From a virus (Duplodnaviria; Heunggongvirae; Uroviricota; Caudoviricetes): 64,000 nucleotides of DNA. Shown piece by piece: positions 40,781 through 40,892 of this stretch. A model generated the notes under the pieces. That model had not been told where the DNA came from. It was given only the letters and a program-made list of their open reading frames with translations, and searched no databases. The position numbers were made by a program, and so were the translations under genes. Location: the IMG/VR virus record IMGVR_UViG_3300029581_000002. One strand, written 5' to 3'. Within the stretch, counting starts at the first letter, position 1; every line of letters begins with the position of its first letter.

Positions 40781-40783
40781 AAG

Positions 40784-40855
40784 TGCCCCATGTTGGACTC
40801 GAACCAACGCCATACAAGTTTAGAATTTGCTCTTCTACCACTGAAGTAATGGGGC
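40784..40855 (-). tRNA. putative suppressor tRNA, anticodon CTA (reads UAG)
   Basis: Acceptor GCCCCAT/ATGGGGC (perfect), D arm CTTC AGTGGTA GAAG, T arm GTTGG TTCGAGT CCAAC. The only 7-nt loop with U33 is TTCTAAA, flanked by stem GCAA(A)/(C)TTGT, which has a mismatch at the loop-closing pair. Confidence 0.4.
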
Positions 40856-40892
40856 GAATGAGGGTTTTACGAGATTACCCACAACTCATCAA

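Follow-up and report, generated by a model that had tools for sequence, protein, structure and literature searches.

A conserved amber-suppressor-type tRNA in a crAss-like phage that uses the standard genetic code

Introduction

Suppressor tRNAs of phages are usually explained as a tool for late genes that contain in-frame stop codons. In clade 8 of the Zeta crAss-like phages (proposed Echekviridae), a CTA suppressor tRNA is reported to occur in genomes that show no suppression (PMC12386605; Int J Mol Sci 2025), and the authors of that study prefer a role in weakening the host or countering its defences to an incipient recoding. Rows 32–43 of their Table 1 list clade 8 genomes of 172–188 kb (one likely incomplete entry excluded) with a GC content of 35.4–36.9%, 20–29 tRNAs, Bacteroides hosts, polA and a CTA suppressor with no suppression. 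In a standard-code Agate phage with a TGA suppressor (Borges et al., bioRxiv 10.1101/2021.08.26.457843), the tRNA was read as a recent acquisition made before a code change, with the matching stop codon depleted to 4 of 146 genes.

Here we analyse a CUA tRNA gene in a 64,000-nt stretch of the IMG/VR virus record IMGVR_UViG_3300029581_000002 (hereafter the window), which a first-pass annotation made from the letters of the DNA had read as a putative amber suppressor within a tRNA array. Our analysis points to a functional, selected amber-suppressor-type tRNA in a standard-code Zeta phage, with a benefit that is most likely host-directed, a reading in which we place about even confidence.

Results

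The phage and its composite genome

Over 13.3 kb, the window has 100% identity to a human-gut contig of 184,175 bp, and one protein encoded in the window recurs in more than 10,000 assembly blocks, which marks the phage as very common. Walking outward from the window yielded terminase, portal, tail-fibre-like and major head protein genes, together with a 1601-aa protein that matches Pfam PF25731 (crAss_MUZ) and is followed by genes of 2967 and 3254 aa; MT835470.1 (GenBank, 117 kb), whose capsid protein shows 100% identity, joins the two walk ends into a circle. The resulting composite genome of 185,999 bp (36.7% GC) is stitched from several strains that are 97–100% identical over their aligned overlaps and is not one contig. 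It carries polA, and Shine–Dalgarno motifs occur at 6% of its gene starts against a background of 12%, as expected for Bacteroidota phages. Distant similarity links the capsid protein to those of cr115_1 and further crAss phages. The crAss-like nature of the phage, a group mentioned in the first-pass annotation, is borne out by the crAss_MUZ match, these distant capsid matches and statistics that fit Zeta clade 8. Overall, the phage matches the Zeta crAss-like phages (Crassvirales) at ~186 kb, with clade 8 assigned by matching genome statistics, not by sequence comparison, and its host is probably a Bacteroides.

Assemblies of close strains differ locally. Contig ERZ1303630 NODE_1 (188,027 bp; L008 12403–15381) ends in LytTR response-regulator, histidine-kinase and aldo-keto-reductase genes; these bacterial-type genes replace most of the lysin gene, probably through a chimeric join with bacterial DNA. 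Mobile insertions also vary from strain to strain. Comparing L191 (15905–18352) with L160 (15908–17329) revealed a 934-nt insertion with a GIY-YIG endonuclease gene, probably an intron, that splits the major head protein gene, and degraded GIY-YIG genes lie between late genes in L242. In MT835470 (composite 139927–150766), the 3254-aa giant gene seems to be divided by a 234-aa ORF into parts of 2275 and 983 aa. The window itself encodes a 355-aa adenylosuccinate-synthetase homologue (phrog_1211, PurZ-type, E = 1.6e-46), which has a homologue in the sister group as well (L149); judging from this gene, the phage DNA may contain 2-aminoadenine (Z) in place of adenine. Further window proteins are a 653-aa SPFH/Band-7 protein and members of Pfam families comprising a ribosomal L7/L12 C-terminal-domain protein, ferritin-like, bactofilin, RNase H and S24 peptidase.

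ARAGORN called 28 tRNA genes in the window, and every tRNA gene of the 186-kb composite genome, searched with the same program, falls within it (Table 1). Encoded CCA is absent from 25 of 27 tRNA genes, which have N73 and a single C instead. The tRNA-Arg(tcg) call is antisense to tRNA-Ser(gct) and probably false, and an 83-nt tRNA match was returned by Rfam only (38.5 bits).

Table 1. Coordinates of the features discussed, in window positions unless another record is named.
Feature	Coordinates	Strand	Details
tRNA array, co-oriented, about 27 genes including the suppressor	14763..48317	-	ARAGORN
Suppressor tRNA gene, 73 nt	40783-40855	-	ARAGORN; read from the sequence as GCCCCAU-UA-CUUC-AGUGGUA-GAAG-A-GCAAA-UUCUAAA-CUUGU-AUGGC-GUUGG-UUCGAGU-CCAAC-AUGGGGC-A
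Rfam RF00005 match to the suppressor	40784-40855	-	
Acceptor stem of suppressor			GCCCCAU/AUGGGGC; discriminator A73
D arm of suppressor			CUUC-AGUGGUA-GAAG
Anticodon arm of suppressor			GCAAA-UUCUAAA-CUUGU
Anticodon loop of suppressor, UUCUAAA	40819..40825	-	U33, C34-U35-A36, A37, A38
Variable loop of suppressor			AUGGC, 5 nt
T arm of suppressor			GUUGG-UUCGAGU-CCAAC
Degenerate tRNA-like element	40703..40780	-	loop CUCAUAA (anticodon CAU); read from sequence
105-aa gene directly upstream of suppressor	40893..41210	-	TAG stop
75-nt tRNA called Leu(CAA)	42936-43010	-	
tRNA-Arg(tcg) call	33760-33836	+	ARAGORN
83-nt tRNA match	21780-21862	-	Rfam
tmRNA	47155-47676	-	Rfam
RAGATH-34 RNA	45172-45279	-	
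Adenylosuccinate-synthetase homologue, 355 aa	29079-30146	-	
SPFH/Band-7 protein, 653 aa	33951-35912	-	
741-aa ORF	61763-63988		
164-aa gene and in-frame 180-aa paralogue	L007 15062-16111	-	
tRNA nucleotidyltransferase (MT835470.1, outside window)	L358 11043-11807		
PNKP (MT835470.1, outside window)	L358 12438-13358		
HAD_SAK_2-YqeY (MT835470.1, outside window)	L358 29901-30806		
NAPRTase + NAD synthase (MT835470.1, outside window)	L358 23770-25928		

A canonical tRNA with a CUA anticodon

ARAGORN predicted the suppressor gene with the anticodon cta at position 33, and Rfam RF00005 matched it with 62.7 bits (gathering score 29; E = 3e-11) over the full model (1–71). Both results agree with the interval 40782–40857 and the CUA-bearing loop proposed in the first-pass annotation, and the predictor assigned no sense anticodon with a different fold. 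Direct reading of the sequence likewise upheld the claim of perfect acceptor, D and T arms. The anticodon stem of the window copy is imperfect, with a G·U at 27–43 and an A·C mismatch at 31–39, and the nucleotides of the tertiary interactions are all present (U8, A14, G18G19, U54-U55-C56 and the Levitt pair G15:C48). The gene encodes A73 and one more C; CCA is not encoded. A degenerate pattern built from this tRNA family matched once in the window, compared with no match in 100 shuffles. The canonical elongator-type cloverleaf with its CUA anticodon is thereby confirmed as a genuine tRNA gene.

ARAGORN labels the gene as a pyrrolysine tRNA, an identity that we reject because the label is a mere convention for CUA anticodons, and the anticodon is the sole point in its favour. 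Pyrrolysine tRNAs are marked by an anticodon stem of 6 bp, a variable loop of 3 nt, a tiny D loop that lacks G18G19 and the absence of a T-Psi-C motif, whereas the suppressor has a 4–5-bp anticodon stem, a 5-nt variable loop, G18G19 (in AGUGGUA) and UUCGA (in UUCGAGU). Pfam scans, covering the best 25 of 34 families for the ORFs outside the window, gave no Pyl-pathway family either, and we assign this identity virtually no probability.

Two irregular elements lie near the suppressor in the array. The degenerate tRNA-like element, located 2 nt downstream of it, has the acceptor GCGGAGG/UCUCCGC, a recognisable T arm and an aberrant D region, and was called by neither ARAGORN nor Rfam; it is identical in L148, diverged in L147 and resembles an 87-nt 'tRNA-Met' of L149. 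In the 75-nt tRNA called Leu(CAA), the variable arm is short and the loop is an odd GUCAAUC whose position 37 is a pyrimidine. The calls for its orthologues vary, with Ser-tga in L147, '??? ct' in L148, Leu-caa in L273 and '??? taaa' in L364, so its anticodon loop is unstable or non-canonical.

Conservation and covariation of the suppressor

To follow the gene through evolution, we used orthologues from L147, L273, L148, L274 and L364, whose adjoining 575-aa protein is 81%, 69%, 66%, 63% and 44% identical, respectively (44–82% for the neighbouring protein across all suppressor-keeping lineages). All five loci have the CUA tRNA at the syntenic site of the array, after tRNA-Tyr and tRNA-Gly(UCC), and it sits between tRNA-Gly(UCC) and tRNA-Ile(GAU) wherever both neighbours exist. 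The loop UUCUAAA and A73 are unchanged in all six distinct sequences, and changes on both sides were found at 9 of 21 stem pairs, spread across all four helices, compared with only 0–1 pairs in slid controls. In these six sequences, 95.5% of the stem-pair cells are paired, against 30–50% when the 3' partners are slid, and none of 500 shuffles reached the observed covariation score. The tertiary pair G19:C56 has changed jointly to A19:U56 in L148 and L274, and G15 and C48 are invariant. The irregularities of the anticodon stem are shared as well: G27·U43 is present in all six orthologues, and position 31·39, which is A·C, C·C or U·C, forms a standard pair in none of them.

The nine compensatory stem pairs and the invariant loop indicate that the gene is under selection. 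A family pattern that allowed any anticodon matched 17 IMG/VR contigs, all 17 with CTA, and the tRNA family pattern had no match in 185,579 bacterial and archaeal species genomes (GTDB). A scan of GTDB genomes with a late protein of the phage was negative as well. On this comparative evidence, the tRNA is phage-specific and long selected with its CUA anticodon, neither a recent mutant nor a pseudogene. Its nearest paralogue is tRNA-Arg(UCU), which is identical at 54–55 of 73 positions and has the same GCCCCA acceptor and A73; the two tRNAs share TTCTAAAC, with the register shifted by 1 nt. We considered a derivation from this paralogue, which is suggestive, and did not adopt it, as the evidence is too weak for such a claim and says nothing about charging.

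TAG is a stop codon throughout the genome

The genome uses the standard code throughout. With a simple greedy ORF caller, the coding density of the composite was 90.6% in code 11, 92.1% in code 15 (TAG as sense) and 90.0% in code 4 (TGA as sense); Borges et al. classify genomes of at least 100 kb as recoded if the density gain exceeds 5%, and the composite gains 1.5%. The 213 composite genes end in TAA (137), TGA (52) or TAG (24), and no gene requires TAG as sense, TAG being the true stop for 24 of the 213. Late genes are uninterrupted (TerL, 586 aa; portal, 733 aa; MCP, 473 aa; fibres; MUZ; lysin, 1246 aa), as are other large genes of 1143, 1590, 1554, 2967, 2275+983 and 1525 aa, and the 1246-aa lysin gene itself terminates in TAG. 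ORF inspection thus supported the first-pass statement that no gene in the window is split by TAG. The accompanying suggestion that recoded genes would lie elsewhere, for example in the structural module, failed, since the 185,999-bp composite has none; of the two things that had been expected together, the CUA anticodon stands, whereas genes with in-frame TAG do not exist. The release-factor or aminoacyl-tRNA-synthetase gene that had been proposed as a check did not appear either: Pfam found neither a release factor (RF-1/PCRF) nor a synthetase among the 72 window ORFs, nor any such family among the best 25 of 34 families in the remaining 43 genome ORFs.

We then extended the comparison to 143 proteins against 355 related loci, covering 1.03 million aligned residues. 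Of the 31 in-frame TAGs in the related loci, the 25 that were traced are artefacts. Two small genes of related strains had TAG at Trp positions, and both were rejected, as one ORF runs through tRNA-Pro and, in the other gene, the TAG precedes the probable true start codon. Three further apparent interruptions were dismissed: the 741-aa ORF is the 1246-aa gene merely cut by the window edge, the TAG that separates a homing endonuclease from the gene after it in L242 belongs to an insertion that is absent from L251, and the apparent TAG end of the major head protein gene in L191 reflects the 934-nt insertion described above. In the relative IMG/VR 3300045988_044054, whose neighbouring protein is 66% identical, the late genes are likewise unrecoded.

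As a positive control, we analysed MT835492.1 (L361–L363), an unannotated GenBank 'Bacteriophage sp.' of 121.6 kb and 29% GC with a capsid protein 61% identical to that of the present phage. Its coding density rises from 56.9% in code 11 to 93.3% in code 15, and its alignments to the proteins of the present phage contain 244 in-frame TAG codons and no in-frame TAA or TGA. Gln is the residue that these TAGs face most often (41 of 199 non-gap positions; background, 3.3%), which means that MT835492.1 reads TAG as Gln. The deposited part of this genome contains no CUA tRNA.

A late switch to code 15, in which the suppressor would decode in-frame TAG in structural or lysis genes outside the window, could draw on the example of this Zeta relative and on several entries listed as 'amber' in Table 1 of PMC12386605. 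The trivial gain in coding density, the intact state of every large late gene, the TAG at the end of the lysin gene and the unrecoded late genes of 3300045988_044054 all speak against it and refute it for the genome as reconstructed; we consider such a switch highly improbable.

TAG usage and candidate readthrough targets

If the suppressor left a footprint on stop-codon usage, TAG might be expected to be rare. However, TAG accounts for 10.9% (n = 138) and 16% (n = 75) of stops in suppressor-bearing lineages, compared with 7.1% (n = 239) in the sister group without a suppressor tRNA, and depletion was rejected as a footprint because TAG is not rarer than in that group. An avoidance of TAG in late genes (2 of 45, against 22 of 167 other genes) was set aside as well, as the difference is not significant (p = 0.12) and the late genes of the suppressor-free sister group end almost only in TAA. 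That TAG is not depleted and is often followed by another TAG argues either for weak suppression or for leaky termination at small cost to the phage.

These observations also bear on the idea that the tRNA currently has no function and either remains from a recoded ancestor or marks a first move toward recoding. Its family is also found in the distant relative L364, recoded and non-recoded Zeta lineages are mixed in the published tree (PMC12386605), and Borges et al. read the suppressor of a standard-code relative of recoded phages as preceding a code change. Set against this are nine compensatory pairs, an invariant loop and a covarying tertiary pair, which down to 44% protein identity amount to long purifying selection, and the undepleted TAG stops argue against pre-adaptation in particular. 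The authors of PMC12386605 judged such an explanation unlikely, and our covariation and TAG usage likewise make a neutral or transitional state unlikely.

We next asked whether the tRNA could serve a programmed readthrough of one or a few TAG-ending phage genes, giving C-terminally extended isoforms. No conserved readthrough target was found among the TAG-terminated genes of the composite, and extensions past TAG (median ~8 codons, several ending in a second TAG) are hardly longer than those past TAA or TGA (5 codons). Diverged orthologues of TAG-terminated genes end mostly in TAA (41 TAA, 9 TAG and 1 TGA). While other TAG stops drift to TAA in this way, the 105-aa gene keeps its TAG in six of six diverged hits (L147, L148 and L274, plus three copies, 65% identical, from close strains). 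The C-terminal nucleotide sequence of this gene is, however, conserved as a whole, its readthrough extension is 5 codons long and variable, and the gene is missing from L273, where the suppressor tRNA is still present; the two are therefore not obligatorily linked.

The second candidate lies ~2.3 kb beyond the right window end, where a 164-aa gene ending in TAG is followed, after 4 codons, by an in-frame 180-aa paralogue. It is the sole TAG-joined coding-strand frame that is coding-like on both sides, which favours readthrough. The pair is lineage-specific, without homologues in more distant suppressor-bearing relatives, and the 164-aa gene is frameshifted in one strain, both of which weigh against it. 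It immediately precedes a holin-like gene and the 1246-aa glucosaminidase gene. A role as a substitute for the gpG/gpGT tail chaperones was rejected, given this lineage specificity and a module that is lysis-like (holin-like, glucosaminidase and endonuclease VII). Taken as a whole, programmed readthrough of phage genes strikes us as quite improbable.

Charging and upkeep of the tRNA

The acceptor stem of the suppressor (G1-C72, C2-G71, C3-G70 and A73) is without the tRNA-Gln identity set, which in bacteria (E. coli) comprises U1-A72, G2-C71 and G3-C70; the phage's own tRNA-Gln(UUG) carries the Gln identity pairs at 1-72, 2-71 and 3-70. By analogy with the TAG-to-Gln relative, charging of the suppressor with Gln is suggested, and A73 and U35 suggest Lys as an alternative. 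Normanly, Kleina and Miller are said to have found in 1990, with synthetic amber suppressors in E. coli, that CUA tRNAs bearing A73 frequently receive Lys, by way of U35. The best match among annotated GenBank phage tRNAs, a Streptomyces phage tRNA-Lys (E = 4e-3), is weak and not informative.

Outside the window, the phage encodes a 254-aa tRNA nucleotidyltransferase (phrog_24229, E = 1.4e-65), PNKP and a HAD_SAK_2-YqeY fusion, in which YqeY is a GatB-like tRNA-binding domain. These three genes fit a phage that maintains its own pool of CCA-less tRNAs. A tmRNA within the window scored 85.7 bits in Rfam and was not called by ARAGORN; it spans 522 nt compared with 374 positions in the model and may carry an insertion. 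A RAGATH-34 RNA (120.9 bits) is located 2 kb from it.

Such an investment in tRNA upkeep, together with the odd anticodon stem in which 31·39 is never paired, would also suit a non-decoding role, with the tRNA serving as a decoy or replacement when anticodon nucleases or other defences attack tRNAs, or else as a substrate for the RNA-repair enzymes of the phage. Its loop nevertheless has all the marks of an efficient decoder (U33, A37 and A36-A37-A38, a context typical of tRNAs for UNN codons), and we know of no anticodon-nuclease target with a CUA anticodon. We regard a non-decoding role as very unlikely.

Discussion

Because the phage has no codon of its own for this tRNA to decode, the benefit of the suppressor is most likely host-directed. 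A host-directed benefit is a conjecture, and no target for it was found. As we envisage it, the suppressor would be transcribed with the array on the strand of the replication genes, trimmed by host RNases, given its CCA end by an enzyme of the phage or the host and aminoacylated by a host synthetase. It could then compete with host RF1 at UAG, so that some ribosomes would continue past UAG, both on host mRNAs and on the 24 phage mRNAs terminated by UAG, and the perturbed termination of host proteins, possibly including defence proteins, would be the benefit. The tRNA itself would be a component retained from a family whose other branches use it for TAG-to-Gln recoding. The weak anticodon stem, with its G27·U43 and the unpaired 31·39, may tune the strength of suppression.

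A bolder version holds that the suppressor is a weapon against the host, in which the conserved weak stem, with three Watson–Crick pairs between G27·U43 and the unpaired 31·39, is tuned to be harmless to the 24 UAG-terminated phage genes and damaging to host genes ending in UAG (e.g., those of defence or stress), and in which the phage tmRNA and CCA-adding enzyme belong to the same takeover of translation. We put this forward tentatively and think it rather unlikely in this full form. If true, it would establish the suppression of stop codons as a strategy against the host or its defences that differs from recoding.

Whatever the precise benefit, a selected suppressor in a genome without any recoded gene means that the usual explanation of phage suppressor tRNAs is incomplete. 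This genome and its heavily TAG-to-Gln-recoded relative form a natural pair for comparison, and for annotation, the CUA tRNA alone is no ground for translating this genome in code 15.

A suppressor without suppression in this clade is already known (PMC12386605), and the present phage resembles clade 8 in its size (186 kb), GC content (36.7%), 28 tRNAs, polA, Bacteroides-type host and single CTA suppressor without suppression. In some of the Zeta phages of that study, TAG is rare or backed by a nearby TAA; unlike those, the present phage ends 11% of its genes in TAG, and the next in-frame stop is often another TAG. With code-15 phages (crAss-like, Lak, Sapphire and Agate; Borges et al. 2022; Peters et al. 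2022, PMC9523058) it shares a CUA tRNA in an array, an origin in the gut and a host that is probably a member of the Bacteroidota, but it has no in-frame TAG codons and, among the Pfam families covered above, no phage RF2, and TAG is still a working stop. The standard-code Agate phage is similar in that a suppressor occurs in a close relative of recoded phages; here, in contrast, the tRNA is old and conserved and the TAG stops are not depleted. Like laboratory amber suppressors such as E. coli supE and supF, the tRNA combines a CUA anticodon with the loop context U33...A37-A38. A weakened anticodon stem is known to modulate stop-codon reading (PMC13092985), where the change affects pair 27-43, at the stem's top, whereas here 27-43 is a conserved G·U and the unpaired site is 31-39 at the bottom. 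To these described systems, our analysis adds covariation evidence of function, the conserved G27·U43 with the unpaired 31·39, the lack of TAG depletion, a full-genome check for recoding and a phage-encoded CCA-adding enzyme.
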